Assembly: GCA_051362555.1 (NCBI GenBank)
Contig: CM120648.1
Span: 2,147,721 to 2,211,720 of the forward strand
Direction: 5' to 3'
Origin: Lingula anatina
Taxonomy: Eukaryota; Animalia; Brachiopoda
Length of the DNA stretch: 64,000 nucleotides
Shown here: positions 2,140 to 29,900 of the stretch, in pieces
How positions within the stretch are numbered: the stretch's first letter is position 1
Layout of the letters: every line of letters starts with the position of its first letter
Translations under genes and position numbers: made by a program
The notes under the pieces: model-generated
Seen by the model: the letters and a program-made list of their open reading frames with translations, nothing else
Told to the model about the DNA's origin: nothing
Database searches by the model: none

Positions 2140-2282
2140 AGGGGTTCTTTTTCTGAAAAAGTAGACCTTTCACCATGAGACCTCCTTGTACCTAGATAAA
2201 ATTTTACCTAGAGTGGATCTTTTCCCAGCAAAAAAAAGGGTGTTCTTTCGAACCCTCTTCCCCCCCCTTGCCTACAGGCCTG
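2140..2282. repeat. Dispersed repeat, family 4 (CAGG...CCTG ends)
   Basis: Similar to 6920-7090 (gaaaaagt.ga.cttt...tacctagat.aaat.tt...cccagcaaaaa...gaacccc.C-run) and to the reverse of 14839-14969. Confidence 0.65.
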
Positions 2283-3835
2283 CTGTCCTGTCTGTCAAAT
2301 GTAAGAGGGTCACGTCATGGCAGCATGTCTGGTTGGGATGGCCAGACGTCCGTGACCAGGGGCTGTGACAGCTACCAGTGACAGATGACAGAGTTAAGGG
2401 TTAAGACAGGACATGTGATGGTAGAGATATTAAGACACCCTGAGTTAAACAAGATTGTTCTACTATCAACATGCCTAGTTGTTTAAGGCTTTTTGTTCAT
2501 GGCAGTGGAAGCAGTTTCTAGTAACCCCTGAATTGCAGGGTGCTCCAAAAAGACCTTCTTTGACTTCAGATGGACATATAGATATTAACATATAAAGATA
2601 TAGGCCGTTGATATGTGTCGAGTTGACCTCCACAAATTACACAGTACTACTGGACTTATTCTGACAGTGCTATCTATATAGTTGTTTTTTTCCAGTCTTT
2701 TTCCCCTTAGTTAAGGCTTGTTGTAAATTGTGCTTTTGCTTAATATCAAAATATTCACTTATTGCTGAATTGGTGAACGAGTCGAGTTGCTATCTGATAT
2801 GTCGTCCCTTAATTGTTTGATTTCTGTACGTTAACAGGGATGATAATAATTTTTGGGTTCTGAACAGTCAGCAAAGAAATTGAATGTATCAGATTGTGTG
2901 TGTTAAGATAAGTGTTGCAACCAGCCAAAAGATGCATCAGTTACGCAAATGGTATGTGGAGAGAGGCCAGGGTCTTCCCTTACAGTGTAATCTATCCCCT
3001 TTTCTTCCCATTAACTATCTCGTAGTGGGCTACGGGTTAGAATGGCACTGCATTGCATCATGTTGTGACTCAGTGAGGGAAGGTTGTTGGCGCGGGGGCG
3101 GGAAAACATCTGATAGCTGGTGGATACTCCACCTAGTTGTATTACCACTTAAAACAGACTCAAACTTTTTTTATTAGTATTACTGATAGCTCTTCACAAT
3201 TGGAAGGAAGTTCTCATATTTACCAAAAAAAAAATAGAAATGATAGTTGTACAATGAATCAGGTCTTTCCTATTTGAACAGTGTGTAGTATTTCAGTTTG
3301 GAATCGTTGTTGTCTGGATTTTAAACCTTGTGTGTATTTTTAGAAATGGTTTAGCAGGACATTTCCCTCTGCTTTCTACAATAAAAAATATTTGATAATT
3401 GAAGACGACTTTTAACATATTAAAAATTTAGTGAATTATATATATATATATAGTAGACATGTATATATGTGGAACTCCACTGTATAATATGTACTTGTAT
3501 TTGTATGCTGGTTAGTATGTCATATAACTGACTCTCAGTGGAGGGGGGGGGGGGGGGCTTTCTCTCTCTCTACCCTCATGATCATCTCCAGCTTCCTGAC
3601 TTCATGGCAACGATGTATGTCTGCCTGCATGACAAACCTGATCATTTCTAATGCAATTGTTCTATAGTTATCAGGATAAGCTTGCTTTGTGTCTGTTGTG
3701 ATACCAGAGAGGGTATGATATGTATGTAGTGTTCTGTCTTGATAAATGTTGTTAATGAGACCTCACCCCATGGTCAACTCTAGATATAAGCTTACAGGAC
3801 CCAGCTCGCATTTTTTGGCCTGCATCAGTTCGCCA

Positions 3836-3942
3836 TCCACCATCACCCCTACCCACTACATCACCCCCACCCACTACATCACCCCTACCCACTATATCAC
3901 CCCCACCATCACCCCTACCTACTACATCACCCCACCCCCTCC
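3836..3942. repeat. 18-bp tandem repeat (catcacccctacccacta)
   Basis: About 5-6 copies visible directly. Confidence 0.9.
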
Positions 3943-5338
3943 CTATTTAATAGGTATTTTTTTTGCATACATTGAACTCCCAAAATTAGTGATTTAGTCT
4001 TAATGAAAAATACATGTGTGTGAATATATTTAATAATTTGACTTATTGTACATGTTAAAAATAAAAGATAAATAAAAAGGAATCCTTATAAATTCCTTTG
4101 GGAGAATTTCATATCCCACCCCATCTATCCCTCTCCAGGTTTAAGCCCCTTCCATTAATAGTACACTGAAAATGTCAATTTCCATTCTGAGGGTAGTTTA
4201 CTTGCCGTGACTCAGTCTTTGCAATTAACCCTGACATTTTATTTCTCTTTCTTTTTTTTAATGTTGGGCGGTCTCTGTTTCCCCATACCTCTCAGTGTCA
4301 TGTGAGCCAGTGATTCAGATCTGTCGTACTAGTAGCAGTGGTATTGTATAACAATCCATGTTCATGTTGTGTACATTTGATAGCTTTGATACTTTGTCTG
4401 AGGTTAGTGGGTGGTTAGGTATAGAATTAGTCTTGTCTTGGTAGGAGACCTGATGATGCTGCCCTCTTGTGGTGGAAAGTGGAAGTTAGGCTTGCAATTG
4501 GTAATTCTGTACTGTATATCAAAAACAGAACTATAAATTTTCAGCTGAGCCTTTTATTGCTGACTTTATTTAGGTTATCAAAATGTATTGATAGGAATTT
4601 TATGGTGAACAGGATCAATACAATCAGTCTTGCCCATATTTTGGAGAGTGCCTGTTTCTACCTTTAATTACTGGATAACATGGACAGTCAACGCTGCTTC
4701 ATGGAGATGCTGCCAGGATTTCATGTTTATGGATTTATTAACTTTGACTACAATAGGAACAAAGGTGATGTCAAAACAAGGAGGACACTGGGAACAATTC
4801 AGAGGAGAAAAAGTGAATTGTGTCCAATTGTGAAAAAAAAAAAAAAAAGGAAATAAGATAATCAAAGAATAGACTGGATATATCCACTCCAAGATGAGAA
4901 AGAGCATTACAAAACATATTCAGACAGTAAATTTCATATTTCAGACTTTTGTAGTAATTTCTCTGGTGAATTGTAATCTTATTTTATTTTGTGAATTTTG
5001 TTTATATTTTTGATATGTTAATAAAGATATATAAATATTAATTTATCTTTGTTTGGCTCAGAAGAATGATGTCTGGTTGAAATAATGGAAAATTCAGTGT
5101 ATCAGTCCAATGGCACATTTTTGATAAAATTATTTTTTGAGAAATAAGAGCATTTTTTTCACCAAAAAAAAAAAAAGATTTTACGAAGAATTATCATTTC
5201 TGATATCCATGGTATCTTTAATCAATTTATATTCGAACAACTGGACTTAGCACTATAATGAAATTAAATAACCTTGCAAAAGACACTTGGTAATTAACAT
5301 CATGTGCTTCACTGGATTGATACATTGATTTGATTGCT

Positions 5339-5341
<3 letters not shown>

Positions 5342-5396
<55 letters not shown>
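5342..5396. repeat. (CT)n microsatellite
   Basis: Perfect dinucleotide run. Other microsatellites: (AAT)n ~8129-8180, (CT)n ~11465-11495, (TAT)n ~21022-21073, (CT)n(AT)n ~30835-30938, (AT)n ~32136-32203, (CT)n(CA)n ~32740-32788. Confidence 0.95.
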
Positions 5397-5399
<3 letters not shown>

Positions 5400-6919
5400 C
5401 ATCACTAAATTTCTAGATCAATCAAAAGCTTGCCAATGCTACATTTGTCCATATCATCTGATTACAGCCATGTTAAAGTGGGCTGCACTGTTTAACCCCC
5501 ACAAATTAAAGCAGAGTAGACTACTTCATACGGACTTGATGTTAATTGTTATGTACGTAGTGCTCCCAATGACACAAAGCTTGAATCCTCGAAGAGAAGT
5601 TAATTTCCTCAAATCTCCCTCTTGAATAGCCTGACAAATAACTTAAAGGCTTGTTACATCATTCAAAGTAATGCAATTACCTTTTTGGCAAAAACTGCAT
5701 ATTGATGCTGAGTGGAAATATAGACGATGTTTGAAGCCATCTGTTTGATAAAGGCCACATGAAGAAGAAAAAGAGTTATTTATAGTTTTTTCTTTTTTCT
5801 TTGGAATTTGACAGTAAAATCATGGTGATATACCTGAAAATTGGTTTTTAAAAAGCCATCTCTTCAAATGGAACATTTTAGCATTTTGACCAAAAGCCTT
5901 CCTGATTATTATTTTCCAATTCCCTTACTATATACATTGCCTCTTTTGCTGGTGAGTATTTGGACCCTATATCACTTTAGTAACTATTTAATTTGATATC
6001 ATCATTATCATTCAAATGAAAATGAAATGACTATGAAAAATTTATTTCACTATATAGGAAATCATTGATGATGCTTAGAAAAGGCACAATTGTTATCACC
6101 CTTTCTTCCATGCCAAAATTCCAAGAACAGCCCCTTTAACCTGGCCAATTAATAGACAATTAGGAAGAACACATAAAACCATCTTCAAAAGATGAGAGAA
6201 GAAAGAGCGCGGCTTTATGGTTAAACGAGTCATGTGTGTCAGGTTGACTATGTTAATTGTGCCTATAAAAGAAGAACATTAATGAGTTTTTGGAGAATAA
6301 TATGCCACCAGTTTGTCTTTCATAGGTTTTTTACACGAGTGCAAGTGCTCTTTAAAGTTTATAGTGATTGGAGACCATTCGATTTATTTATTGATTTAAA
6401 AAATATTTTTAAGAAGCCCTTTGCATTTTCTTTTGGATATTCTCTCCCTTAATTGCATTGCCACAACATCAAATGATGATGTAGTTTTGCAATTACAAAC
6501 TAATTGCACCAAAGTCTAGTAAACATGTCATAATTACTAAACATTAAATATTAAATTACTACTTAGAAAAAAGAGCAATAGTCCTTCGAAAGAAAAAGAG
6601 TATAGTTATCCCATGTCAAGTGATACAACCATCATTGTCTACTACATATTTTATCTGGGGGAGAAAAGGCGCCCTTGAGCTGGAGACGACCACATGGCCA
6701 CTTCACATGATTCACAAACATCACTGCTAAGAAAATGTACCTTTGGATGAAAAATACAGCAAATGCCCCGTGTCAAGTCATAAAGTCATCATATTGTAAT
6801 AACTTATTTGACTACTTCTGGGGTCTCCCCAGACAGTCTCCCCAGAACAGGAAAGGAGTCCCTGTGACCTTGTTAATAACTCAAGGTTGGCTGGTTTGAA
6901 TTATGGTGGACCTCAGCCA

Positions 6920-7090
6920 CAGGTCTGTAGCCAGCAATTGCAGAAAGGGTTGGTCTCTTTTTCCGAAAAAAGTGGATCTTTTATCATGAAAGACTACCTA
7001 GATCAAATCTTGAACAGAGCAGACTTTCCCCAGCAAAAAGAGCGTTGTTTGTTTGAACCCCCTGCCCCCCCCCCCCTTCCTCGGTCAGGG
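6920..7090. repeat. Dispersed repeat, family 4
   Basis: Homologous to 2140-2282; starts caggtctgtagccagcaatt. Confidence 0.65.
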
Positions 7091-8137
7091 GTCCGAGGCA
7101 AGAGTCATATGATAGAGAAAGGAGAACAGTTTTATCGGTGGTCAAATGAAGTGGAAACGGGGAGGTCAAAAATGGCCTGAGCCCATCTACAGACTGATGT
7201 AAACAATTTTTGATTATTCCAATTTCCAAATTTGTTTTCTGAATGCAAGGTACTCAAATATGCACAAGTCTTGATCATTCCATTTCTAATATGATGTCAT
7301 CAGAAAATTTTTACAAAGATTTGTCCTGTCTTTTGTCCCATTTCGACCTAGAATTCATCTACTCAGACATTCTGAGGTTGTGTCTGAGAAACAAAATGAT
7401 CTTGATTTCAGACCTGTCTGACCTTGGCCTGAAAACTCAAAGCAGCATTTTCAGTGCTTTTGACCTCATCCTAGAGATACAAGTCTTCGAAATTTCCCAT
7501 CTCTGGGGTTTTAAGTCCCCCCCCCCCTCCCCCATGCTCTTTCCAGTCTCCACCTCACATACAGCTCAGCACTTTGGGTTCTTGTATTTTCATGATTTCT
7601 TAAAGGTCCACTTTCATCTTTAGCATCACGCCAAGTTGTGATTTAAAAACCTGTTGACACTCAGCTCTAATATAAAGGAACATGTGTACTGTTATACTGT
7701 ATGTGACCTTCTTATCCTGGCAAGTGCTTCCACATGTGAATATTTAATACATTTTATACCAGATGTTTCTGGCATATTTTATATGTCACAGCTAGGGTTT
7801 TATGATAACAGGGTTCTACAGTTCTTACATTGCTAGCACTAGTACTGCACTGGCCTTAGTAAAGTTATCCTATCCCCTCATTTAAAATGTATATTCATAA
7901 ATTTAGGATGGCTCAATTAAATTTAAAACTTGATTTTCAAGACATGTAGGGATGGGACGCATACCAGTATGATATTCAGTGCCATATAGTTTCCCACATA
8001 TCATGAAAATCAACTTTAAAAAAAATATATATATATATAAATATATTTTTTTTCCTAGTTCAAATCAGACCTAAAAACTATAAAACCCCGCAATTAAAAG
8101 TACCTGCCATGAGTTTAGAAATTGGGTATAATAATAA

Positions 8138-8182
<45 letters not shown>

Positions 8183-8570
8183 AAAGATGTACTCTAAACT
8201 TTAAATACTAAGATGCTAAGATCAGAAGCTCTACATAACATCGCCTCTAGAATTAAATTGCACTAACTAGATAATTATATAAATGGAATAAAATTGCACT
8301 TCCATTGTAAAGGTTAATTTTAGTTGTAGCACTTTGATTGATCATATGACAAATTCCAAATGTTACATTTTCACATACAGTGAAACCACATGGCAGTGGC
8401 TCAGATGTACGTCAGTGAGTGGCAGAGCAGAAATTGATGTAATGAATTGAAAAAACTTATACATTGTACATGTGGATCCTTGCACCTTGTTTAGTGATCT
8501 TATTTGATGATGTTAATTTTTAAGGTATATTTGAGTCAATTACGTACTATATTTTCATTCACATTTTTAG

Positions 8571-11460
8571 GATGAAATCCGCCAGGCGCGACGCATGAGA
8601 GAAATCAACGCAAAGGTCAAAGGTGATCCAACACGACTATGGAACCTGCGAATGAAATTTCTGGAACAAGCCAAAAAGTATTTTGGCGTCCCTTATGCAA
8701 AGAAATACTGGTCGCCAAAAGGTACACTCAGCAGTGCATTTAACATTGTCAAATTATTACTGAATGTTGAGAGTTAATTAAAATTTTTGTTTTCAAATAA
8801 AACATTTTTAGGTCTGTAGGAAAGCTTTCAATTTCTCAAAAAAATGTTCATCATCAAAACTGTAAGATAGCTGAAAATATTTTTGTAAAAAGTTGAAAAA
8901 AAAACATTGTTTGTTGAGGTTGATTTTTTTCTGACATTTTTTGAGTAACACAGAGACCATGCAAAAGAAAATCCAGAAGTCAAGACATCATAATGTTGTG
9001 AACACAGTGATTGCACAACTTCAAGCATCCTTTAACAATGACATTTTCTAGTTCAAATTTGAAACAATGACGACCTTGAAAAATGCATAAATTGACTTTA
9101 AAACATCAAAACTTTCAACAATTTTTGGACAACTCACTGTGTTTGGCTAACTGCATTATATTCTGCCTGAGGCAATCAGATTCCCATCGCAGGAATTCTT
9201 TTGTGTGAAGTTGTTAATAAATACTCTGTAAAATGCCGTACCAAGGCTGTAATGTCAGTTCCTCAAAGTCCCGATGGTTATTTTGATTGTTTTTTTATCA
9301 CACTATCTTGGGTTTAACCTCTTTCTTATCTCTCGTGTCGTCAGCTTTGAACTAAAAGGCAAATGTCATAAACTGTTTGTGAAGGCATTTTCCTTTTTTC
9401 ATTTTCATAATTTATACGTCTTTTTCTGTTTCTTTTTACTGGAGAAACAATGATTTAATTATTTTTTTCTTTTCAAATTTTATTCAAAAATGCACACTTG
9501 AGGAATGTAGGCTTAAACTTTACAATTTCTTCGCTTACTTGAGCTATACCCAACAAAGTTTTAAAATACCTTATTAACAACTCTCAACTGTAAACCGTGT
9601 GTTTGTTTTAACAGCAAATTGGATGAATATGAATAAATAAAGTGTTTCTTTCTGATATATTGTGAAACCAAATGAAAATCCAGTTAACTACATTTATTTG
9701 TATAAAAAATATGATAAGGTACATTATACAATACGACGAAATTCAATAAAATACAAAAAATACAACACAAAACAACAAAATTCAGTACAATACAATACAA
9801 AAAAAAAAAAAAGAAAATTCAACACAAAACAACAAAATTCAATACAATACAACACAACAAAATACGATCCAACAAAGTTTGATACAATACAACAATATTC
9901 ACTACAAAACAATACAGTAAAATTCAGTACAATACAATACAATACAAAAGAACAAAATACACAATACAATACAGTAAAATTCAGTATAGATACAATACAA
10001 GTCCATTGATCTAGCTACCTTCTATCCCCCCAGACCCAGAGTACTTCTCCAGTCAGTTTCTGGATTGCTGTGGCTTGGTGCGCCAAGTGCTCAGAGACAT
10101 GGAGGCGGAGCTGGGGTTCCGGGTCGGCCAGTGGAACCAGGCTTACCAGTTCGACACGCTGCCCATCACAGTGGAGAAGGAGGAAGACATGAAGCCTGGA
10201 GATCTGGTCTTCATCGCGGCCACGTATTACAACCCTAAATGTAAGTGATGGACTTTGTCTCCAGCTATGGTGTGTGTATGGAGCACGGCAGGTGCCCTGG
10301 GCGCAACATAAAGGGCGCCACTTAATGGAGCTGCTGTTTTATGTTTAAATCATCTTAATTAAATTATCTAAATTGTCATTATTTTTTATTTATTTATTTA
10401 TTTTTTGGTTTTCTTCATCAAAATGATGAATTCAAATCAAATATATATAAATAATTATTGTTTGAACAAATTTATTATTTATATGAAAATGACAAATCTC
10501 CGAAAAATATAGTAATGATTGTTGTTTGAGCATTTTGAGTTACTACGATAGCACCAAGCAGTCATATGCTAAGAGCTTCAGTTAACACAGGACAACAGAA
10601 GAGAGGTGTCAGTCTCTGCTTTATAATTTCTGGAGGCCATTGGTGTAAAAAGGTCTTAGGACCCCAGAAGGTTATGGGTATAGGACTTGCTGCCCTCAGA
10701 GCAAGTCTGCTCTTTAAACTCCAAGCGAAATATGTTGATGATTTGGAACCTTGTTCTCATCCCTATCCATGCATGTTTTACGTAACATAAGCTTCTCTCA
10801 GTCCCTATATCACAACTCTAGATCCAAATAAAGACATCAGGCCAGCACGATTTGTCTTTGTTGTTCTCTGTCCTTGATGTCAGGTAGCACCTGGCCTTGT
10901 GATGGTGTTTCATATAGTGTGATGTAGTTTCATTTCCTGAAGCTGTGATGTGATGAAGATGTTTCTTCTCCATGTTTGTTTATGTCAGCCCTGTTTCCAA
11001 TGCTCTGATGACATCCATTATTTGGTCAGCCTTGTGACTTCGGGGCTTGTCCATTCTCAGAATGGTGCAATGGATTATAAATAAATGGATCTAATCTGTT
11101 GTATTTGGATCAGAGATCTAGAGTCAAAGATATGTAAGCTATACATGCACCATTTATTATGGCTTTACTTTCAGAGACATCCTCTTCATTTTCAAATTTC
11201 CTGATGGTAACACTTTGACTTATTTTTTCTGTCAAAGTTAGACCAATTGTGAACAGTACCTTGTTAAACGGTGGTAGCACATGCTTTGATTACACAATGT
11301 AAAGTGCTGTAATAGTTTGGTGTTGCGGTTAAGTGACACAGAGATAAAATGTTAGTTCCTGGTTTGTGGAGATGTCACCTGCATGAAACGTGCTGCATGA
11401 TACACGTGATGATAACGTGATGATTGGCTTCCTTTCTTCTTAGAACTGCCACAATAAGTT

Positions 11461-11498
<38 letters not shown>

Positions 11499-14015
11499 CT
11501 GCACGGAAGAGAATTGGCCATTGCCTGTCTTGATTTACAGACAAGCTGAAAGACAGACAGACAGACAGACAACCTAAGGTATATCACAGCTTCTATAGCA
11601 GCAACTAAAGTATCATTTCTTATCTTGAATTCATCATCAACTCAAACAAAATGAATAATAATTTGCTTGTAGTGTAAAGATTATTTTATTTTTAGAAAAG
11701 CATTTTCTTATTTCAAAAGTGGGCATATCTTTTTTTTAATAATTGTTTCTTTCTGTCTGAAAGGAGACAGCCCTGCCTGACGCGCTAAGCGTTGACTGTT
11801 TGCAAAAATTTCCTCAAGGGCATGAAAATAAGCAAGTAAATTGAACTTTTTCTACTGTCAAACAAGCCTTAAATGGCATCCAGTCACCACAATTACTGTG
11901 CCAGAAATTTTCTAAAATTGGTGTCTCCATTCACCTTGAAATAAACAAATTGAATAAAAATATTCAAAACATGGGGAAATTCTAATTTCAACACTGATGT
12001 GTCACATTATATCAGACAATGATTATAACAGTGTTTGTTGGAGAATCATTTCTGTAATTACAGTTGTAAAAATTGACACCTTCAGTTTTCAACATTTGCC
12101 CTGCAAGTATCTACTTATCAACCCAACCCCCGCCAGCCTGAGCCGGGAATTTATGTGTGCCAGGCATGTAAGCCCTGAGGGAGCGCCTCTAAAAAGACCT
12201 GTTCCACTGGGCCACTTTTGTGTTAGAGCAATCACCGTGGCATTTTTGGTTGAAGTTTATAGTGTACTCCTTCCAGCAGTTTTATTGTTGGAGATATTTT
12301 CTTCCTTGTTGAACCGTTGCCCGAAGAAGCTAACACGGCAATTTACGAACTTCCCAGACTGTGACAGACCTGTGGGCACTTTATAGCATGACTTTTTTTT
12401 TAAATCTTTTTTTTTTCATTATATGATATATATATAAATCTGTGTTTATACTTAACACAAATACCTGATATTTATGAACTTAAACTACTTTTAAGGTTTA
12501 AAAATCTGGACTCTGTTTTTCATGAGCTGCCCTTTTGACCGGATAAGGTCTGCTCAGAATCAAAATTTGATCTAGGTTCTATGCCATTTTTTCAATCTGA
12601 GCAGCTAAGGGGGTAAAAAGTTCTACTTTACTGAAAAATAAAACAAAAAAAAATAATAAAAAAACATTGCAGGACTAATACATATCATTCATTTCTAATT
12701 TTAAAATGTGTGAAGTTACTCATTTGACTACAAAAATGCCATAGATATAACTACATTTGTATACATATTTATTAGAAATTATATTGATTTTCATCTTCAC
12801 AGTTTGTATTCCTTCTTGACCAACACTTGGGCAACGCATTCACTAACAGCACCCTCTACTGTTCTGTACTTCCAGCCAAAAGACAGCGCCATGACATGGT
12901 GCACGTGGAGATATGGCTGGGAGACGGCCCAAAGACGATAGGAGCACGCTGGCAGAGGGGAAAGGTCCAAGTGTTCGACAGTTACCAGTTTGAAGCCAAA
13001 AGTTACCACAGTCCTACATATATATTTAAGTCCATTGACACGTGGCTGATGGGAATATGCCAAAGGTACCTTGATACTTTAGGCTGGTTACATTTATTTG
13101 TTGTTCAGGGCTCCGTAACTCCAAAGCATCGCGAATTGTGATAGTGATATCACCTTTTATTTCGAAGCTATTATATGGGGTGAGTAAATCCTGAGTTATG
13201 GAATAGAGGCGAATCTCCATGCTTGGGCTCAGTCGCAATTCACGATGCTTTTGAGTTATGGAGCCCTGGACAGTCCTCAAACTAGGCTTGACCATGTTCA
13301 AAGTCCATTGTATCACATATTGGTAATTTGATATTTCATCCTCTCTCAGAACATACTAAAACAAAAGTTGTGAAATAAATTATTGATACTTAAATACATA
13401 TTTTTGTGGTCATCACATGTAATAATCAATCAGATTTAAGGCTGCTATTTTTTAACCCCAAAGGAAAACTGATAATTTAACTCTGCATGAAAAGATTTGT
13501 TTTACCCATTAACTTATGTGCTGTTTTGTTTTTATAGCTACTGCCCAGAGCACCCATGGAAGACATCCCGTTATGATCCAAGCAAGCGGTCTGTGTTCTC
13601 GTATTCAGACGACCAGGATGCTGAGGTGGAGGAAGAAGAAGAAGATGCAGAGGAAAGTGCTGGTGATACAGATGACGAAATGGTGCGCAGCTTTGGAGAC
13701 GAAAGGGACTTCAAAAAATACCTTTTCACAGCTGCAGAGGAGGTGAAGGCCATGAAAATGTCAAAGGTCAATGTCAAGGCCACAGCTCAAGCAATCTCAG
13801 AACTCAGTATTAACAGTGTCCAGGAAGCAGATTCCGTCCATTTATCACAGCAAAGTTCAGTCTCAGAAACTTTATGCAACAAGGAAAATGTGAGTGAAAA
13901 GACGAGGAGGAGTCCAATAGGCCCAGATGGCAATCCGTCCGATGCCGACACAGACGGTCAAGGGCAGAATGGGTCGTCTGCCACAGGAAGTGCAGGTGCG
14001 GACAAGGATGAGTAG
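8571..14015 (+). CDS. NlpC/P60-like cysteine peptidase domain plus acidic linker (5' half of the TTLL10 locus, or a separate upstream gene); 5' end unresolved
   Basis: Exons 8571-8721, 10034-10240, 12876-13065 and 13538-(13995 donor, or stop at 14015), all GT-AG with matching phases 1,1,2. The spliced translation ...FLEQAKKYFGVPYAKKYWSPKDPEYFSSQFLDCCGLVRQVLRDMEAELGFRVGQWNQAYQFDTLPITVEKEEDMKPGDLVFIAATYYNPKSKRQRHDMVHVEIWLGDGPKTIGARW... follows the NlpC/P60 motif order GxPY / DCSG / PGDLVF / HVGIYxGxG. Exon 8571 has an acceptor, so further upstream exons are likely; the first in-frame ATG is at 8595. Confidence 0.85.
9722..10000. repeat. Degenerate (CAATA)n-derived repeat immediately upstream of the catalytic-Cys exon
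   Basis: Repeated aatac/aacac/aaattcagtac units. Confidence 0.85.
13106..13268. mobile_element. MITE-like non-autonomous element, family 1
   Basis: ~36-bp TIRs (cagggctccgtaactccaaagcatcgcgaattgtga / tcgcaattcacgatgcttttgagttatggagccctg); related copy at 57054. Confidence 0.8.
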
Positions 14016-14838
14016 TATGATTTGATTGGTGGATTGGTTTGGCTTTGGTGACATGGTGATCAGCAACTTTGGTTTACATACTCTCTTTGATCATGGTTGT
14101 GTGGAAAAAAGAAACTAAAAAACAGGCTGCCATCTTAGAACTTGTAGATTATCACTGCTATGATTATACTGCTATATTTGACTGTTTTCTTTATTTTTAC
14201 CAGTCCCAATCTTATCATGATTCTGCTTTTTAACAGTACATAAGGTAGCCATCCCTTGGTTTTATTAGCTGTCTTTTAAAGATCCATGCTCAGATTGCAG
14301 AATTTTATCTATTGGAGATATGTTCCTGTCTTTTATGTTGGTGAGAAAATTCCATCAATTTGGAAGTTTAGATATAGCATGCAGATATTCTATTATGTTC
14401 TAGTTCTGTCCAAGAGTGTTGATTTTTGCACTGTTTACAGTTGTATTTTCTAATCATATTGTAAGGTTTTTTAGACTAAAGTTTACTTTATTATACACAT
14501 TTTTTTCATGGCGCTAAAAATACAGAAAAGCATTGAAGGCCTAGCAATAATAGTGCCCTGTAAAAAGTATACTAGTTTTTATGAAACGTGTAGTTCACAT
14601 GAAAGATAAAAATGATTTTCTTTTATATAGATAAGTGACTTTACAGATGTTTGTGACCATAGAACATCTGACTCAGAACTTGAATTTATTTAAAAGATAT
14701 TTCTAATTGAAAGACTGCATTTTAGTTCTAGGCATGATAGCTAGATCTAAGAGATGTAGGAATAAAATGATTTTTTAATTTTTTTTTTAAATTTCCATTT
14801 AGAAAAAAAGGACCAACACTAATACTTATACTGTTATA

Positions 14839-14969
14839 CAGGATCATACCATTATGTTTGGTGGGAGGGGGGTTTGAACTGCCCCTTTTGAACAGAAATG
14901 TCCACTCTGACTAAGGAATTTTGTAAAAAGAACCCCATATGAAATATAAAATTGCTGACTGCAAGCCTG
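14839..14969. repeat. Dispersed repeat, family 4, inverted, with a TTATA direct repeat outside the CAGG/CCTG termini
   Basis: Reverse complement starts caggcttgcagtcagcaatt; both flanks read ttata. Confidence 0.55.
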
Positions 14970-16836
14970 TTATACATTTAATTTCTGAATGCCAAGTGTT
15001 TTTTTAGACTATTAATCCACATCACCTGGACAAGTCATCAATAATTGACAGTAACTGTCTGCGACTGAGTTACGTACACACACATTTGATATATGAACAC
15101 TCGTAGCTGATGTCCCCTAATGGCATTGGGAAAACCATCACCTCAGTGTGTAACATGGCAACAAAAATAACCTCATCATTTCAAGCATTGTCAGGTTCAC
15201 CAAAGTGACAAGAGAATGCATTACTGGGAGCTTGTGATGGATTAATCCGTCTCTTTTCACGATAAACTAGATCCAATATTTAGTCGTTGTTGTCGAATAT
15301 AAAGGGATCTCCTTGTCTGCAATACAGGTGTGTATTGAAGCAAGGTTTCTGCTGTGTTTGAACTGATTGTAGGTTTTCTGTGCAAGAAGCACACTCAAAC
15401 TGAACATGGCGAGTTTAGCCCAGTATTATGGTGAAAAAAGGATACCTTTCTGTAATGCAAAACATAGAGTTTGGCACTGTTAAAAATTTAGAGTTTTTTT
15501 TTTTTTTTTTTTTTGAAAGTAAAGACACAATCAGGGTAGGCCCATAGGCCAGGGAAGTTTTGGGGGGAGGTCGAGGAATTAGAAAGCAATTCGCCTCTTT
15601 GCAAAAAATTGTCCAGTTTTGAAACAAAATGTGATTAGGTTTTACGCCACTTCTCAAATCGGGTCAATTAATGAGGAAAACGGGGCCTCTTTTTATGAAA
15701 AATACCCCCCTTCTCCTTTGAAATTTCTTTTATGCTACATTGCTGGACAGTCTGGTTCTTCCAGCAGGGTGCCATGCAGGGGCAGATCCAGAGCTATTTT
15801 CTGACAGTCTTCCAAATTATTTTTATTGATCCATCCTCCATTTTTGACCATCTTCCAACAGAAAAAAGACCCAGAAGATGGCCTAAATTTGCCCCTGCCA
15901 GGTGTGTAAATACAGGTGCATTTTGGCCCAACAATGACAGAAGCAAACTTTCCCATTGTGATAGCTATGCATTCCTACTCAGCAACACTCTGGCACATTC
16001 AGCCCCAGAGGGATCATCATTAATTGACAGGTATAGATGATTGTTTTCAAGAGAATTGCGGGCACTGTGTTGTTGTTATAATGCACTTCCAGCTCAATCG
16101 ACAGGTGGATTGTTCTCCATACAATAAGAGTAATTGCATCAAATATGAAAGAAATGGGAAGTAACTGGCATGCAATATGTGCATTTGCTTCTGTTTCAGC
16201 CAAGCATGTCCTTGTTTGTCTGTCATATGGGCTGAACACATTGTGCCACCCAAAGTTTCAGAGGTCTGTTGTGTTTGTTTGGTAATTAGGAAACCACTTT
16301 GCTAGTAAATAGACCAGTAACACAGAGTTTAAGAGATTAACAGAAACTTGCATCTATTAAATAGAAACAACATAGACATGTAGTTGGTATAGAGAATAGT
16401 TTCTTTCCAGTGCACCATTTTTAGTATTGACTTTTGGTTATAATGCTAATTTTTTTTTAGCATTCATTTGTATTACTTTTGTTATTTAGCAATTTAGATG
16501 TTAACCATGTTTTGTTTGTATATTTATTTTTATTGGAATTTTTTAAATGATATTTTTGCCTGAATTGCCAAATTTATATATAGTACCTCGAATATGTAAG
16601 ATGGATCAAAATTTTAGAGAAGATTGTGTAGGTTAGCAAAGATGGGCCAGACGTGTTAAATGAGTATCTACATGAAAAGGTGAATTATTTATTGGAACAA
16701 CTCAAAAATAATTCATTTTCTTGGTGTATACTTGAACATTAAACCTACTCTCATTAGTCAATGTGCCAGTACTTTATATATTGCACCACAGCACTGCTTA
16801 TCTATAACGCCCTCTTGCAGACGCAATATTTTAGTC

Positions 16837-16842
16837 AATAAA
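16837..16842 (+). terminator. Candidate polyadenylation signal for a peptidase-only transcript
   Basis: AATAAA followed ~30 nt later by a GT/T-rich tract (tcagtgtttctgtattt); lies downstream of the in-frame stop at 14013-14015. Confidence 0.35.
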
Positions 16843-17125
16843 GCCTTAGGCTTATCTCAAGGAAATCTCAGAGTCAGTGTTTCTGTATTTAGAGAGCTAT
16901 AACAATTAAAATAATCCCAGTTACAATCCCTGTATTGATCCCATCCTGCATGCTAGTACAACACAGCTATGGAGCCTTCATTCTTGTGTGTGTTTAATGA
17001 TAATGAAATTGGAGCAAATACTTGCAAGTAGCAATTACCAGTAAACGAAAGAAGCACCTTGTCTTGTTGAGTCTTGGTGGACTTAGTTTGAGGCCAAGCT
17101 GAAGTTCGACTGAAGCCTTTGGAAG

Positions 17126-17186
17126 ATGCTCAATTCAAATATTCGACACGATTTTGGAAGTGTCTACTTGGCTGCCTCTGGTCCAG
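17126..17186 (+). CDS. Candidate alternative first coding exon for a TTL-only isoform (MLNSNIRHDFGSVYLAASGP)
   Basis: ATG at 17126, open for 20 codons plus 1 nt to a CAG|GTAGGC donor. Phase 1 matches the 18794 acceptor. It lies ~290 bp after the AATAAA at 16837. Confidence 0.4.
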
Positions 17187-18793
17187 GTAGGCTCCATTTT
17201 CTTAAGAAATTAATAGGAAATATTAATTTTATTTTATTTTATTCATGATGACTTTTTGGTCTTTAGATCACTATTTCTGACAATTTCTTTGAACTGCTAT
17301 TTGATAATCTTGCCTTGTATCATATGGCCATGGCATGCTTAATATATTTAAAAATTATTGGTATTGACCCCAGATTTCGTGTGTTAAGAAAAGTTAAGTA
17401 TTTAAAGTGAAAAGTTGAACATAACATTTTTAAAAGTCAAAAAAAAAAAAAAAAAATCACCTACCTGCCCTTTGTAACAGAGTTCTCTTAACTGAACACT
17501 GTCTCTGGGAACACTTGGGCGAGGGTTCTTTTCACGGTGGGCAGTATGCTTTACTAGACTAGCCCACTTTCAGAGGTTGACAACTTCCTAGCCCGACTAT
17601 TACATTAGAGATTCACCTAAACTGAGCTCACACTTCATATAACTGCCATTTATAAATGTAGCTAATTAGTAGGAATTGTACTAATGGAAGGAAGTAAAAA
17701 AAAAAAAAAAAACTGTTGCATAATCGGTACCTCTAAAAGAACCAGTTTAGTTGAGTTTATACCACTCAAGATGAAAAGGTTTGTACATTGTAGCTGTTAT
17801 TAAGCATTTGAGTACTTAAAATGTTCTATTGATTCTTTAGCCTTGCATCTTTAAAATTTTAGCTTTGGAAAGATATGACTTTCCTACACTTATTGACAGT
17901 AATGAGTTGATGAAAAAATGGCATAGGTTGAAAAAGTGGTGATTCAGAATTGCTGTGTATATGTTAGGCAAAGGTGACTTGGATACTGTGTTGTATTGTT
18001 ATATTAAGGAAATCAAGAATAATTTTTGCCAAATTGCTGGAGTGGCAATAAAACGTGACACTTTGAAATTTTAAGCATTGGCATATAAGGATGAATAAGT
18101 TTTCACGAGATATTCAAAGATGAAAACTATAGTGTTCAGATTCATGTTTATTTTTTATCAGTTGGGTCCTTAGGATACTACCCCCCCTCCCCATGTACAA
18201 CTGCAATGTGTGAAGATTTTTCTGAGTTTTTTAATTAATTAATTTATTTATTTATCTTTCTAATTTATGTGGCACAAAATGTACGTATCACTCAATGACA
18301 ATTAAAAAATAAAAATAATGACAGGATAAGGAAGATTAATTTAAGTAATGATGATCTTATATTTTTGTACAACTTATCATAGACAGTGACAGGGTTTAGT
18401 TAAGTGCTCTGTTCCAAGATGGCAGCACTGGTGTGGGTGGGGCAGATATGTGTTTTGTTGTAGTCATTAATCATTTATAGGAATTGCTCACATTTCCTCA
18501 CAAAAGAAATATAATTTTGCATCTTTTCTCAAAAGTATCTTACTTTCAAATTATATATTGAATGACTTCCAGTCATTGTATTTAACAAAAAAAAATTACA
18601 TTCTTTTAAGATTGCACAAGGTGTGATTTTTTCAAGTATTCCAAGATGTAGAGGCATAGCAATTCATTTTAAATAAAAAAATATAAATATTAGCTAAATT
18701 AATCTCTTTATTATCTTAGACGCTGCTTGAATTATAAGTGCAAATTTAATCCTCCTTCAATTTATAATGCTGTGATGTTGTATAATTACCCAG

Positions 18794-21026
18794 GTGGTGG
18801 CTCCTCCCCAAATAAGAGCCCCAAGAAAACCGGCAAGAAGACACCAGAGGGTGCTGGGGACAACGGCGGAGGAAAAGGTGGCGGGAATAGCGGTGGTGGA
18901 GGTGGAATGCGGGCACCTAGAACGGTTCTTGCCTCCAACATGCAGCCGACATTCTACATTGGTGGAGGGAATGGGGTCGCCTTGTAAGTTTTCTTTTAGG
19001 AGGGTTAGGCACCAAATAGTTCAGGTTCCTTAGGGTGATTTTCAAGTATATAATTCACCTATAGAAGTGTAAAGAAGAAGGTGACATAAAGGTGCTTTCT
19101 AACAATAACTGTTATTATTTGTTTTAAATTATATGTATTTGATTTTGGTAAGTAGATTTTAATTACAAATATTAACTTTATTTTGTTCCAATTATTTCAG
19201 AGTTGAGGAACCTCTACTGGCTCTGGGTTGGAAGAGGACCACAGATAAAAATAACGACTTCTTCAAACTCAAGTGGACCGAAGCAAAAACTGCCATCAAC
19301 TTTAATGCATTTAGAGAAGGTTTGGGCCTAATTAACTTTTTTATAAATTGAGAATTATTAAGTAAATATTTCTATCACATTCAAAGAACAAACATTGTAC
19401 CAAAAAACTAGACGTATGTTGTATTTTACCATTTTTATTTTTATGACTGATTTTGTGGAGATAAGTCATAATTGTTGAAACATCTTAAAGTTTATAATGA
19501 CCCAGTTGCACCAGATAACCCATTTTTATTGACAAGTAATGATTGATTTTCTGGAAATAAGTTATATTGTTGAAACATCAACAATATATTATGCCTTAAT
19601 GGTACCAGACAACCCTAGGCAATTAAAAAATATATTGACTAATTCCTGAATTTTTCAATTAGGAGAGCAACTTGTAAACCACATTCCCAATGGGCAGCTT
19701 CTGACCAATAAGATGGGTCTTCTCAACTCACTGAAAGAATATGAGCGCGTCTCTGCCGGGGTCAGAGCTCGTGGGCCTAGGATGATGATGTCAGACTTTT
19801 TCTGTGAGACGTACAAACTGGACGAACGGACAGACAGAGAGGCATTTTTTAATAACTACAAACGTAAGTTTTTATATTGGCACTCACGGTGAAAGGAGTA
19901 TATCTATGTTGCTGGTCTTTGTTTTTTTCATATTTATTTTTAAGCATATTTCTTGCACCTGATGTCACTGACACATTTGAAAGATATGGATGTTACATGT
20001 CACCTTTGTGTTTGTATCTATTCTTTGTTGAATTAAAACTGTTACAAAATTTCTATTACCAAAGTGAAGCAGTTTCTATAGTTTACTCAAAGATTTTGTT
20101 GTTTTCATTCAACTTTATTTATTTCAACTTCTTTATACTTCCATAACTTGTAGCGGGAGAGGTGTGGATCTGTAAACCCACAGGTATGAACCAAGGCAAG
20201 GGTATCTATCTAGTCAGAGACATTGAGAAATTTAAAGCCAGTTTGGAAGAAAGAGATGAAAGGCTAAGGAGGCGGCGGGTGAGACCCACTAACATGGGAA
20301 GGATAATACAGAGGTACGTTATACAGAGGACTGGAGTATCATATATTGTGAAAAAAAAAATTCACGTAATCATTGTGTTATTGTACTGCATAACAGTACA
20401 GAATGATAATACAGAGGAACATGGTATCTATTATTGTTAAAATAAACCTGCTCATTTAGTGATCAAAGTTACATGTGCTTTGTAGAAAAGTTTGTATATC
20501 TAACAGCTTGAAGTTCTTTTAGCTCTTTACTTTGAAAAGATACATTTCACGTAATATCTGATTTCATTTTTACATAGATATATTGAAAACCCACTGCTGC
20601 TTGAGGATAAAAAGTTTGATGTGCGGACATACATGCTGATTGCAAGCACCACACCTTACCTTGTGCTCTACCACAAAGGATACGTGCGCTTGTCTTGTCA
20701 GAAGTATGATCACCATAGCAACGATCTGACAGCACATTTGACCAATCAGGTGAGGGAAGCAGAATAAACCTTTGTTTGTTTGTTTGTTTGTTTGTTTCAC
20801 TCACACTTGTCTTTTATTAAGAACTGTTTTCAACCATTGTTTAATTTAGTGCAGTTTCTCTTTAAAAGAGCTGAGTATAAATATTATGAAAATCCATATA
20901 TTACATGTTTATTTGCAAGAACCAAAGAAAGCATTATGCAAGTATGGAATTATTGCAACAAGCAACATTTAGGCAAAATAATTTCAGGTATCTTTAAATT
21001 AAACATTAAGTATTATAACTGTATTA

Positions 21027-21073
<47 letters not shown>

Positions 21074-22453
21074 TGTAGTACATTCAGAAGAAGGACCCCA
21101 GCTACCAGGATGTGAAGGAGGATACAGCCTGGTCCATGGATAAGTTCAATGACTACATCAACGAAAATGTTGCTCCTCACAAAGATCTGGAACAGAACTG
21201 GGTTTATACAACTTTCACGGTGAGTTGGTAAAGGCATAAAATGCATTTCTACCATAAAATCATACTACAGGGAATTTTACTCCTTTTCACAAGCTCTGCA
21301 CAAGTTTGCTTCCTGTCGGAGTACATTTATAATAACCGGTGTCAAAATGACCGTATCATTTCCTTTGATTTTTATTCATTTATTTACTTATTTGTTTCTT
21401 TTTCTTTTTCCAGAAACAAATGCAGCGTATCATCACGCACATATTCAATGCAGTTAAGCCAAAGCTGCAGACCAGGCTTGGCTACTTTGACCTGTACGGC
21501 TTGGACTTCATGATAGACACAGACATGAAGGTCTACCTAATTGAGGTCAATGTTAATCCCGCACTTCACATTAACTGCGAGGCTCTCAAGGAGGTCATCC
21601 CCAGTGTGGTAGAGGAGACACTGTGTAAGCAATACACAAGTACACTGATACTAAGCACAAATAGTATATTTCCATAGTAACTGTTGTCCTTCTATCTGTT
21701 GTGTTACTTGTTTTGTAAAATGGAATTAAACTCTAATAAAAAATTTAGGGAAACATGAGTCAAAGATGCAAAGGATGTTAAAAAATCTTTTACCTTCATG
21801 TTGGCCATTGCCAGAAAGTCCATATTAACTTAGAGGAATAATGTCATTAATCTGTGTTCTTCAACGAAAAAAATTATCAGTGAGCAACTGTTTGATACTC
21901 TTTTCTTCCTTTTCTAGATGTTGCCATAGAGTGCTTTGAGAAGAAAAAGAAAGGGAATTCAATATGGCCCTTGCAGTCACTGAAAAACTTCACTGTTCTC
22001 TATGATGGGGAGTCTGGAAAATATCTCCATCGTATGACAGTCAATAATGGTCAAATACGCACCCAGTCACCAACAAAGGAGGTTCGTACTCAACAAGATG
22101 ATACCGCCACAGTGCCACCTACACTTAAAGAACCTCCTAAGCAACAGACTCCATCTACAGTCCAGAGCCCTGCCAAGACAAGCCCAACAGTGACCACCAC
22201 CACTACAGCAGCATCACAACTGCCTCCAGTACAAAAGCCCACCACTCCACGGCCACGAACATCTAGTCGTAGCATTCCAGCCACGGAACCAACTCTTTCA
22301 TCACCACGGTTACAGTCCACAGAGATCTCGATCCCAGTTACAAATCTGACACTTCCTAACGAGGCAGTGAAGCTACGCCTAACTACAGCCAACCACAACT
22401 CTCAGTCCCATAATGCCAAGCGACCTAAAAGTGGAGGCGACAGAGGAAACTGA
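18794..22453 (+). CDS. TTLL10: Tubulin tyrosine ligase-like 10 (polyglycylase) TTL domain with a Thr/Pro/Ser-rich C-terminal tail
   Basis: Exons 18794-18983, 19201-19319, 19663-19863, 20154-20313, 20578-20749, 21079-21219, 21414-21624 and 21918-22453 (TGA), all GT-AG and phase-consistent. Motifs [72 protein letters not shown] and [13 protein letters not shown]...[22 protein letters not shown] match vertebrate TTLL10 as I recall it. Confidence 0.95.
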
Positions 22454-23187: not shown

Positions 23188-23382
23188 CCAGGCTCCAGTT
23201 TCACAAAAAAAAAAAAAAACTTAAGTCAGTTGCCTGGCTTAGTTGACTAGGATTTCCATGAGAGTGCTGTTACACTGCTCCTGATAGGGTAAGATGTGCC
23301 CATCTGACTATGTTACCTTGTAACCTTGGTAATTAAGCTCTTAGACAGGGAACCTGACTTTTTTTGTGAAACTGATACCAGG
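23188..23382. mobile_element. MITE-like element in the presumed TTLL10 3' UTR
   Basis: TIRs cagtttcacaaaaaa...aagtcag / ctgactttttttgtgaaactg. Confidence 0.7.
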
Positions 23383-26928: not shown

Positions 26929-29900
26929 TTACTGCTTCTGTGGCAGAGGTCCTGCCAGCTGTCCTGTGGCGCCATCTACTGGCTGTTGCTGGGCCTGCGG
27001 TGGTTGTTGTTGTGGCCACTGCTGCTGCTGTTGTTGTTGATGTTCTTGTTGGGCAGTGTTGTAAGCTATAGGACTCTGGGCATGCATAGGCTGGGCCTGC
27101 AGTGGTTGTTGTTGTTGTGGCCACTGCTGCTGTTGTTGTTGATGTTGTTGTTGGGCAATGTTGTAAGCTAAAGGACCCTGGACATACATAGGCTGGGCGT
27201 TGTAACCTCCAACTTGGGGCCCCTGCTGTGGATAGTACACAAAGCCTGAAGGAGGTAAGGTTTTTAAGATTAAATGAGAAGAATTATGGTCTGATGGAGA
27301 CACAAACATCTGAATGAATATGAAATCAAAAAATAATAAATAAATGTTGATAATTTTCTATGTTAACACATATTGAAAAATTTCTCAAATGAAAAGTTTT
27401 TAAAACATGCCAAAACTTCTGTGAGAAAATAGCTTTGAAACAGCATGTTGTCCAGGGTGGATGATGGCCAATTGTGTAATGTAAATGATCCATAGATGGC
27501 AGCACAAACAGCATGTTGTCCAGGGTAGAAGATGGCCAAATGTGTTATGTAAATGATCCATAGATGGCAGCACATATGTGCAATGTCTGTGACACAGAGA
27601 TGGCAGCACAAAATACGAAATACTAATAATTATATTATATAAATTTTGTCTCATGTCTTTTTATTCACATTACCTTGTTGTCCAGGTACCATGTAAGCCC
27701 CAGTATTTTGTGCATTATTGGGTACTGTATAGATGACAGTACCCTGACTAGAAGGCTGCAATATAATTAAATACAACATAATAGGTCCTAATTAAGATTA
27801 AGTCATTTTAACAACATGCAATATTAACAAAATAATAAAAATTCATGTTCTTTTTTATGTGCATTAGATGTGATAGGAAGTTCTATACATATTGCAGGAA
27901 GTTCTATACAGGTTTTCTACACATAACAGTATATGAGCCAGCAACAAAGACATTGTTCTTTTTTCAAATATATGGCTCTAAATTTTTTATTTGACAAAAT
28001 TAGATGATAAGCCATGTGCTAAACGACAGGTTAAAGAAAATCTTTATGCACCATTAATAAAGCTTTAGGAATGTCTATATGAAAAGAGGCATATGTTTTT
28101 TAAGGTAGTGAAAAATATCATTTTCTATAAGAAAATGATCCAAATTCGCAAAATCTTGACAGCTCCAAGTTCAAAAAGCACTGACCTCAGAACAGCAACA
28201 GACACCATGGCAACAAATAGCTGATGAGATTACTGCTATCACCCCCTCTGTAAAGGCCACGAAAATCAAAAACACTGACCATCCCCTGATATCATTTGCC
28301 TGCAAAAGTATTGTGACGAAGAAATATATAAATATTTGCCTTTGGAATTTGTAAAAAAAAAAAAAGCTCAGCAAGTATTCAGCAAGTACACATTTTTTAT
28401 CACAATTGTTTTATTTTCAATGTAAGATTTGAAAACAAGCACTCAGAAAAAATACAGTGCACCTGAGCTGAAAAATGTTTTGCCATAAACTTAGACCCCA
28501 TTTCCATAGATTTTAGATCGATCTATCCCTGTGGGGAGTCTCACTTGATTACTGTCATCTTAGCCGGCTTAAGCGTCTGTCCCGCCTGCTGAAAGCTGTA
28601 AGGGGGTAATTAACTACGGTGCGCACTCGGCTGACCGCAATTTAGCGTGAACCCCCAGGGAGTTAGGTCGATTTAAATCTTAATCTCTGGATCGATCTAA
28701 ATCTCTGGGAATACACCCTTAGAAACAAAGTTGGCGTCTCTTTCTCAAAATGTCTCATCTCACTGAACACAAAACAAAAGGATTGAAATTGGACTACTTA
28801 CAAAGGATATCTGATATTTATACGGAACGCGAGGATCGACTTTTTTCATAAGGATCTCAGCCCAAGAGAAACCTATCAAGACTGTCCATGAAATAACGGC
28901 TGATATGATGCACATGACCATATATGAGATGACCTGGAAAGATTGAAGTAATAAATAAATGAATGAAAAGCCAGACAAATAAAAAAAATGAAATTTTAAT
29001 TGATGTCCTGACAAACAAAGAATAAATATATAATAATATACAATATATATATATAACGTAATTACCAGTATATGTACATATATCATCATTTTGTCTCTTT
29101 TATATATTTTTTTTGTATGAAGCACTGATATTTTCAAGCAAGAAAAACTTGAAAAACATAGAAGTCAGAAGGTAATCTTAAACCGAAGGTTAATGTGAAC
29201 TCACCAATCCCTTATTTTTCCTGCGTGCCAAAATTCCCAGTGCTCCTGTCACAATGAACTAAAACCATTCTTCAAATTAGTCAATATCTATATTGCATAA
29301 TCCTGCCATGCTGATATTATGGGAATACGAATTAGTCAGTCTTAATAACATAAATTTAACAAATCTTAGATCGTTAACTTTGTTTCACAAATTATCTTAT
29401 CAGAGAATCTGTAATACGTTGCTATGGTAACCTAACTGAACTCTCTCTCTCTCTCTCTCGTCGTATATTACCAGAAAGCCACACCATATCCCTGCTCCAT
29501 GCTTGTAAGATTCCGGAAGCAATACCAAAACAATACCAGTGCTGACAGAGATAATCCCAAGAACAATTTGGGTTATACCAAGTCCCACACCAGCCCTGTG
29601 CATGTACCTGGAACAAATGCATTTTTAGAGTTAAAACTATACTCTGATTTGCATGTAATTACCGAATAGGTTCAATTGATAATAGTCTGCCGTCATCTTA
29701 AATTTGATTCTCCTTCTAAAATCAACTTAAATTCCATTTAAATTTTTTTCAAAAGAGATGCCAAAATGAATATTTGGCGACAAAAAATGAGAGAAAAATG
29801 ATGTAAAGATTCAAATTTCATGGCAAATTTTTTCACTGTAGTACTGGCAATGGGCACGACCTTGATTTGGCATGCACTGATGCATGTGCGTTTTGGTACG

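Follow-up and report, generated by a model that had tools for sequence, protein, structure and literature searches.

The 64-kb stretch of Lingula anatina DNA analysed here (the window, 64,000 nucleotides) carries on its forward strand, at 8571-22453, a gene whose N-terminal part codes for a predicted peptidase domain of the NlpC/P60 superfamily and whose C-terminal part codes for TTLL10, a ligase of the tubulin tyrosine ligase (TTL) family. This domain pairing is real and ancient and apparently undescribed, and it seems to constitute a bifunctional peptidase-ligase enzyme with a new NlpC/P60 subfamily. The fusion exists as RNA, because raw reads cross the junction 13995>18794 and further introns of the gene are supported as well.

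Eight of the nine RNA runs carrying the species label were aligned to the window. They fell into two sets: four runs, of which 6-25 % each was read, covered the fusion-junction region, and the other four were aligned only up to 15800, short of the fusion acceptor. The junction, for which the first-pass annotation had called for RNA reads, was found in two of the four runs by ten reads: X4 contributed two reads with two starts and X7 eight reads with six starts, while X1 and X5 showed none among the joints listed. At least six of the 11 introns, this one included, were supported among the joints listed. Joint 8721>10034 was read in three of four runs of each set, 10240>12876 in all four of each set, 13065>13538 in all four of the set ending at 15800, and 21624>21918 by eight reads in X7.

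The 12-exon chain sums to 2736 nt, or 911 codons, the sole in-frame stop is its last codon, and GT..AG borders were present at all 11 introns. A search with exon 2 led to protein P0004, named 'protein polyglycylase TTLL10 isoform X3 [Lingula anatina]' at its source, with which the model aligned without gaps over 911 aa (908 identical, 99.67 %, three substitutions); the model thus equals P0004 residues 9-919 bar three positions, and the join across intron 4 is the same in both. The 911-aa frame, the motifs GVPY, DCCG, PGDLVF and HVEI and the resident, spliced eukaryotic nature of the gene, all read from the letters in the first-pass annotation, were accordingly confirmed. Residue numbers below follow P0004 (model + 8).

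All exons lie on the plus strand. Exon 1 (8571-8721) holds the N-terminal helix and the G-x-P-Y motif (Tyr50 codon 8694-8696); exon 2 (10034-10240) holds Asp69-Cys70-Cys71 (catalytic Cys codon 10066-10068), Asn93 and PGDLVF; and exon 3 (12876-13065) holds His137 (12902-12904), Glu139 (12908-12910), Gly150 and Arg152 (12947-12949). Exon 4 in its spliced form (13538-13995) brings the end of the peptidase domain, a conserved S-[VI]-F, an acidic stretch and disordered linker, and ends at an internal donor, GCAG/GT. Removal of intron 4 (13996-18793, 4798 nt, GT..AG) fuses the peptidase to TTLL10. Exons 5 (18794-18983), 6 (19201-19319), 7 (19663-19863), 8 (20154-20313), 9 (20578-20749), 10 (21079-21219) and 11 (21414-21624) code for the end of the Gly-rich linker and, from 18943, for the TTLL10 ATP-grasp ligase domain, with codons for Lys521 at 20174-20176, Glu715 at 21543-21545 and Asn717 at 21549-21551. 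The final ligase helix and strand and a disordered Thr/Pro/Ser-rich tail are encoded by exon 12 (21918-22453, TGA at 22451-22453).

Exon 1 is an internal exon (an acceptor AG, then Asp). When all six frames of the window were searched for the first eight residues of P0004, no five consecutive residues matched exactly. A scan of 1-8570 for upstream exons bounded by AG and GT yielded one unconvincing candidate. Nine homologous N-termini, run by tblastn, had among the matches listed none upstream of 8559 that rose above noise, and no joint leading into 8571 was among the RNA joints listed. A helix motif L/M-Q-x-x-F-x-x-F, displayed by 133 of 199 relatives, is absent from the exon-1-to-12 model. 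Intron 3 contains an inverted repeat at 13102-13272 (40-nt arms, 88 % complementary) on which partial reads from elsewhere piled up, as for a small repeated element; similar pile-ups were seen at 2137-2233, 15776-15897 and 23253-23360.

Exon 4 is also open past its donor, for six extra codons up to a stop at 14013-14015 (TAG). All eight runs had RNA over 14.0-15.8 kb, which in the stranded libraries matched the orientation of the gene. Depth was 0.5-4.0 at 14.5-15.7 kb (one X2 bin being 0) and only 0-0.25 further into the intron, at 16.9-18.7 kb. From the read-through stop and from coverage that extends beyond the donor and fades within intron 4 we infer a second, peptidase-only transcript, whose read-through part (13996-15800, plus strand) would comprise the six codons, the TAG and a 3' untranslated region (UTR); its protein would count 341 aa from the first residue of the model. 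Read counts were low for both isoforms and their share varied by sample: X1 displayed 19 reads for the exon 2-3 joint and none for the fusion joint among those listed, and X7 displayed six and eight, respectively. Public models of several molluscs and of gar likewise include fused, peptidase-only and ligase-only proteins, encoded on contigs of equal length.

The N-terminal domain belongs to the NlpC/P60 superfamily as judged from structure prediction. AlphaFold gave high confidence to residues ~21-190 and 391-775, the linker and tail being disordered; block values of the predicted local distance difference test (pLDDT) were 87-97 across most of residues 21-190 of P0004 and below 50 for most of residues 216-389. 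A separate domain model was built from relative P0006 with 85 sequences (mean pLDDT 87). All Foldseek matches listed for it were cell-wall peptidases of NlpC/P60 type or homologues of these (best E 4.5e-5), and VIA-align superposed it on 6bim (Z 12.6, root mean square deviation (rmsd) 3.4, 127 aligned residues) and on YkfC, 3h41 (Z 12.3, rmsd 3.2, 121 aligned). With the full-length model, TTL-family chains only were among the Foldseek matches listed. VASH and phytochelatin synthase did not figure among the best 50 VIA-align matches listed, which leaves a likeness to them possible. Pfam PF00877 (NLPC_P60) matched P0004 with 24.3 bits and exon 2 alone with 24.1, marginally above the cut-off of 23, under which many homologues score; NCBIfam gave no match for any of four proteins. 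Solved NlpC/P60 structures were missed by sequence with the profile of alignment A1 and reached with the deeper A3. The earlier prediction of a papain-like NlpC/P60 fold for this part was thus upheld by Foldseek, VIA-align and Pfam.

Conservation was counted over 311 carriers, redundant cluster members included. Cys70 was kept in 301 of 301, Asp69 in 300/300, His137 in 298/299 and Tyr50 in 277/278, and these four align with the Tyr, Asp, Cys and His of YkfC-type enzymes. Glu139 (298/298), Asn93 (305/306) and Arg152 (291/292) were equally constant. The usual third polar residue (His, Asn, Gln or Glu, ~12 positions after the His) is missing: that position held Gly in 281 of 292, Ala in ten and Ser in one, and in P0397 the aligned residue is the His of I-H-A. 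The invariant Glu139 may replace this lost third His. Basic residues next to the active site are conserved as well, K/R reaching 96 % (position 53), 94 % (position 129) and 100 % (positions 75 and 152). An acidic stretch C-terminal to the domain was present in 171 of 227. Among 47 fusions the peptidase was better conserved than the ligase, with mean pairwise identities of 64 % versus 52 %.

Residues that shape the murein S1/S2 sites of YkfC are Trp228, Ser239, Arg255 and Ser257 (PMC2954226). The first is replaced here by K/R/Q/E and the second by Cys in 298 of 301; the Arg255 position is variable (Arg in 93 of 306, Pro in 128; an alternative registration does not restore an Arg either) and the small residue at 257 is Asn in 305 of 306. 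Arg152, near-invariant in this family, is absent from the bacterial motif. On these S1/S2 residues the family does not pass as murein DL-endopeptidases (C40 proper), and hydrophobic-looking N-termini were encountered in only three of 261 full N-termini. Judged by its residues, this superfamily member looks like an active cytosolic enzyme with a substrate of its own.

The C-terminal domain is TTLL10 by sequence comparison, as first annotated. Pfam PF03133 matched P0004 with 171.5 bits, and the ligase scored 453-524 bits against five TTLL10-type proteins and at most 86 bits against solved TTL-family chains; the named vertebrate matches of the TTL-domain search were TTLL10. It is 53 % identical to Xenopus P0174 (453 bits) and kept all 17 checked motif residues. 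Lys521 and Glu715-x-Asn717 were kept in 123 of 125 fusions. The protist partners were compared with solved TTL-family chains, a set that leaves out TTLL families lacking a solved chain: the Spumella partner scored 115-152 bits against TTLL10 and 66 against these chains, and that of Guillardia 63-72 and 28. Elongation of glycine chains on monoglycylated tubulin would follow by orthology to the Xenopus enzyme.

The conserved linkage to TTLL genes that had been asked for in relatives was found across eukaryotes. PF03133 was present in 90 of 97 homologues of 806-2300 aa, and 125 full fusions were collected. Named fusions came from two sponges, cnidarians, molluscs, annelids, nemerteans, echinoderms and a hemichordate; from lampreys, sharks, bichir, sturgeon, tarpon and coelacanth; from axolotl, a caecilian, four turtles and a lizard; and from the protists Spumella and Guillardia, with a partial model from Ichthyophthirius, so that stramenopile, cryptophyte and ciliate-code sequences are represented. 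A search of invertebrates and protists had been suggested; both carry the fusion, but it is not confined to them since vertebrates do too. To our knowledge, all named carriers are ciliated. A TTL match was found in 45 of 150 representatives at 50 % identity, and in 30 (two weak) of the 34 with at least 400 residues after the domain; no other partner domain recurred in 61 proteins scanned.

Metagenomic sequences, counted over the best 80 of 340 loci, displayed the same arrangement. Both domains lay in one uninterrupted frame in 64 of the 80 and a TTL match just downstream in five more (69/80), while ten of the remaining 11 loci end within 460 bases; a downstream TTL match was present in 32 of 33 loci with 1500 following bases. 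The ciliate code gave the best reading for 54 loci; linkers in ciliate-code loci can be down to ~30-60 aa, and 51 of the 54 keep the nine checked site residues. In trees of the two domains (92 of the 125 fusions used) 39 of 89 splits were shared, and only one of 22 strongly supported peptidase splits conflicted with a strong ligase split. Because the two trees agree, the sequences indicate one old fusion that descended vertically with the ligase; the agreement speaks of age and is silent on function.

No prokaryotic or viral member was found, with scans that used two short motifs and are blind to distant relatives, and none of 120 pattern matches on viral contigs was confirmed. The single match in prokaryotic genomes, a locus labelled as a Desulfobacterium metagenome-assembled genome (L001, 4149-6209), was rejected as a prokaryotic member: with 25 % GC and four short open reading frames in 10.8 kb (table 11), and open only when TAA/TAG are read as Gln, it is likely a mis-binned eukaryotic contig holding an apparently intron-containing member of the family.

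Uncoupled forms were also encountered. Stand-alone proteins with an intact site were found in Chlamydomonas schloesseri (P0302), Andalucia godoyi, a MAST-4 stramenopile and Telonema. Locus L041 holds a complete stand-alone gene of 260 aa between unrelated genes, and its protein shares the helix, the domain, an S-I-F motif and an acidic tail with the short Lingula isoform. In the Guillardia theta cluster (P0311 / P0052), the sole dead-ligase cluster among the 125 fusions, the E-x-N and other ligase motifs are lost while the peptidase is intact, and the pseudo-ligase may act as a microtubule-binding module. Seven stand-alone proteins (P0273, P0234, P0267, P0275, P0285, P0304 and P0310) carry low-complexity N-terminal extensions of 180-340 aa and no TTL; they possibly form a second subfamily, with weak tree support. 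A tree built from 124 of 261 domains, fused as well as stand-alone, had deep support too weak to order gains and losses. Laboratory Chlamydomonas has TTLL3 only, with monoglycylation and no TTLL10, according to the part of PMC11244163 available. A peptidase kept without elongation on the same chain fits removal of branch glycines better than trimming, and fits an unrelated substrate too.

Several known systems resemble the Lingula protein in part. The ligase resembles that of Xenopus tropicalis TTLL10, of which residues 105-570 were assayed (PMC12340829, in part); as none of 25 frog TTLL10 proteins has the peptidase, the assayed enzyme is without it. MEROPS C40 enzymes (YkfC, Spr/MepS, RipA/B, Trichomonas NlpC1) have the same fold (Z 12.3-12.6) and the same canonical order of Tyr, Asp-Cys, GD and His; relative to them the Lingula family displays DCC for DCS, HVE for HVG, Gly for the third His, Y-x-K/R for Y-x-W and variable-W-N for P-R-x-S, lacks a secretion signal, is TTL-fused and, in the motif scans made, was restricted to eukaryotes. 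GspSA/TryS join a papain-fold Cys-His amidase and an ATP-dependent amide ligase in one chain, the amidase of GspSA being N-terminal (PMC6272389, in part). Its amidase is, however, of the distant CHAP type (3a30: Z 5.6, rmsd 4.7, 121 aligned) and acts on a small molecule, whereas the animal linker of the Lingula type is long and disordered, and Pfam recognised NLPC_P60 and TTL in the Lingula protein rather than CHAP or GSP_synth. The detyrosinase VASH-SVBP is a papain-fold enzyme that acts on tubulin tails (PMC10318531, in part). In the available parts of the literature none of CCP/AGBL, the TMCP deglutamylases, VASH-SVBP, Giardia M20 and CEP76/CC2D2A/CCDC135 is NlpC/P60 or TTL-fused, and the Giardia M20 deglycylases of 14-3-3 are metallopeptidases (PMC4230590), unlike the Cys-His candidate.

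VASH and phytochelatin synthase, both with a papain fold, take off a terminal Tyr and a terminal Gly, respectively (PMC10318531, where TTL goes unmentioned in the sections available). Papain-fold peptidases were proposed to reverse ATP-grasp peptide tags on tubulin, with transglutaminase-like ciliary domains as erasers; in the available text of that paper NlpC appears only in the references (PMC3495828). Papers of 2024, 2025 and 2026 state, in their available parts, that a tubulin deglycylase is unidentified (PMC11244163, PMC12340829, PMC13308552), and the accessible portion of PMC4230590 rules out CCP2/3 and gives the M20 enzymes of Giardia, whose substrate is 14-3-3, as the sole deglycylases. 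A full-text search, which leaves most subscription literature uncovered, found no paper pairing TTLL10 with NlpC, or tubulin tyrosine ligase, NlpC and ATP-grasp, and no title or opening of an abstract listed in further searches named this fusion; it left out Iyer et al. 2009 (amidoligases) and Anantharaman and Aravind 2003 (NlpC/P60), either of which possibly mentions the fusion. Databases automatically label some members 'NlpC/P60 domain-containing protein'.

We tentatively favour the reading that the peptidase domain is a cytosolic or ciliary amidase which removes glycine side chains from tubulin tails. Glycylation is initiated as a gamma-Glu-Gly isopeptide by TTLL3/8, and TTLL10 only elongates, by alpha-linked Gly-Gly (PMC12340829, in part); NlpC/P60 enzymes cleave gamma-Glu amides (PMC4600125, PMC2954226, both in part). 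Given the gamma-Glu-type S1 site and the TTL-free Chlamydomonas member, cleavage of the gamma-Glu-Gly branch would be more likely than Gly-Gly trimming. The first-pass analogy with glutathionylspermidine synthetase/amidase, in which a ligase makes the bond that its amidase cleaves, therefore needs a change, since TTLL10 makes Gly-Gly and TTLL3/8 the branch: two enzymes on one chain stand, but identity of the bond holds only if the peptidase trims.

Mechanistically, Cys70 would attack the side-chain (gamma-) amide of a tail Glu, most likely that of the gamma-Glu-Gly branch, a bond proposed because the S1 site of the family is built for gamma-linked Glu. Asn93, at a position where murein enzymes have a small Ser, Ala or Thr, would accommodate a Glu with its alpha-carboxyl in a peptide chain, Arg152 might hold the carboxylate of the leaving glycine, and Glu139 could orient His137 in place of the lost third His. 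As TTLL10 binds monoglycylated microtubules best (PMC12340829, in part), the tethered ligase may carry the eraser to its substrate, and use of donor 13995 versus read-through would then decide how much writer-eraser is made relative to the eraser alone. A fuller version of this proposal is advanced with greater reserve: the family is possibly the ancestral eukaryotic tubulin deglycylase, a gamma-Glu-Gly-cutting writer-eraser with a rebuilt Cys-His-Glu site, carried on TTLL10 from early eukaryotes onward and switched by splicing between fused and free forms, which would have escaped notice because the TTLL10 proteins studied so far, from frogs and mammals, have lost it.

Several points weigh against glycine side-chain removal. 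Frogs, which lack the peptidase, and mammals, which apparently lack it, glycylate tubulin. None of 25 frog TTLL10 proteins had the domain, no match was named from a mammal or bird (no direct search of either was made), and 71 of the top 120 TTLL10-type matches were without it, some of them split or partial models and including frogs, tunicates and lungfish models. In animals the disordered linker varies from 59 to 804 aa. The equivalents of Ser239 and Trp228, which bind gamma-D-Glu in the S1 site, are altered, so that an inherited gamma-Glu specificity is a matter of argument alone. Unless regulated, an eraser linked to the elongase would strip off the primer on which the latter depends, and a fusion is an association and does not name a substrate. 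TTLL10, moreover, keeps the length of its chains in check by itself, with no eraser involved (PMC12340829, in part).

An active domain could instead edit the tails by another chemistry, namely removal of gamma-Glu-Glu branches, Glu-to-Gly transpeptidation that primes TTLL10, or tail clipping. This would draw on the same gamma-Glu amide cleavage (PMC4600125, PMC2954226), the basic residues by the active site suit any acidic tail, TTLL10 recruitment is raised by glutamylation (PMC12340829) and papain-fold transpeptidases such as phytochelatin synthase are known (PMC10318531; all four sources in part). We nevertheless find it unlikely: the sole recurring partner is the glycylase TTLL10 and no glutamylase, TTLL3/8 provide the primer in animals, and branch deglutamylation is already assigned to AGBL5/CCP5 (PMC13425397, in part).

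It is likewise rather improbable that the domain is an amidase acting on a non-tubulin target (another protein that is glycylated or acidic, the acidic linker next to the domain, or some small molecule) and riding TTLL10 for location or co-expression. Chance company is hard to credit for a fusion kept in opisthokonts, stramenopiles, ciliate-code sequences and a cryptophyte, at times with short linkers. The stand-alone forms, of which some have long unrelated N-terminal extensions (Andalucia P0273, the P0285 MAST-4 cluster), the inferred peptidase-only isoform of Lingula and the acidic stretch after the domain do agree with such a target, and non-tubulin glycylation exists, for example on Giardia 14-3-3 (PMC4230590, in part).

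The Gly at the third triad position would suit a weak or non-catalytic module that reads glycylated or glutamylated tails and steers TTLL10, and non-catalytic NlpC/P60 binders are known (RipD, 4jxb, by its title). Active-site residues usually drift in binding modules, however, whereas Cys70 and His137 are near-invariant here, and the domain is kept where no ligase is attached; such a reader is quite improbable. An antibacterial peptidoglycan endopeptidase like that of Trichomonas, fused accidentally to TTLL10, has very little likelihood left: the closest solved folds are indeed murein endopeptidases, led by Trichomonas NlpC1 (Z 12.6, a tie with others), but the four YkfC positions are replaced, hydrophobic N-termini are rare, and 90 of 97 long matches have the domain joined to a cytosolic ligase, with which it descended vertically. 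That two adjacent genes were merged by a gene-model error, as the stop and covered 3' region of exon 4, the X1 counts and the separately modelled halves in several molluscs might suggest, is refuted by the ten junction reads in two runs and the 64 one-frame metagenome loci, besides the 125 full fusions.

Elsewhere in the window lies a cluster of about five multi-exon genes that resemble one another and code for membrane proteins with tails rich in Gln and Pro, at 26.9-29.7 kb (minus strand) and at 37.2-40.1, 45.0-47.3, 51.5-53.9 and 57.8-60.8 kb (plus strand). First exons of this cluster matched Pfam CD20 (MS4A-like) at 29403-29624 (E 2e-7), 44997-45329 (E 9e-4) and 37205-37432 (E 0.016). A single long open frame at 33317-34486 (plus strand) matched Sulfotransfer_2 with 142.8 bits. 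Continuous plus-strand RNA covered 1-4700 in X6 and also in X8 and X9, with no clear coding frame and no joint among those listed; it may be 3' UTR belonging to a gene further upstream.

Glycylation is the major tubulin modification still without a known eraser. The family offers a single domain of ~175 residues with one Cys to mutate, and tractable hosts in Chlamydomonas, ciliates and sea urchin. If it is a true deglycylase, the glycylation cycle would be closed and a tool to strip glycine from microtubules gained, and frogs, and apparently mammals, would run glycylation without this eraser. If its substrate is another one, a near-invariant uncharacterised enzyme would be sitting on a writer of the tubulin code across eukaryotes.

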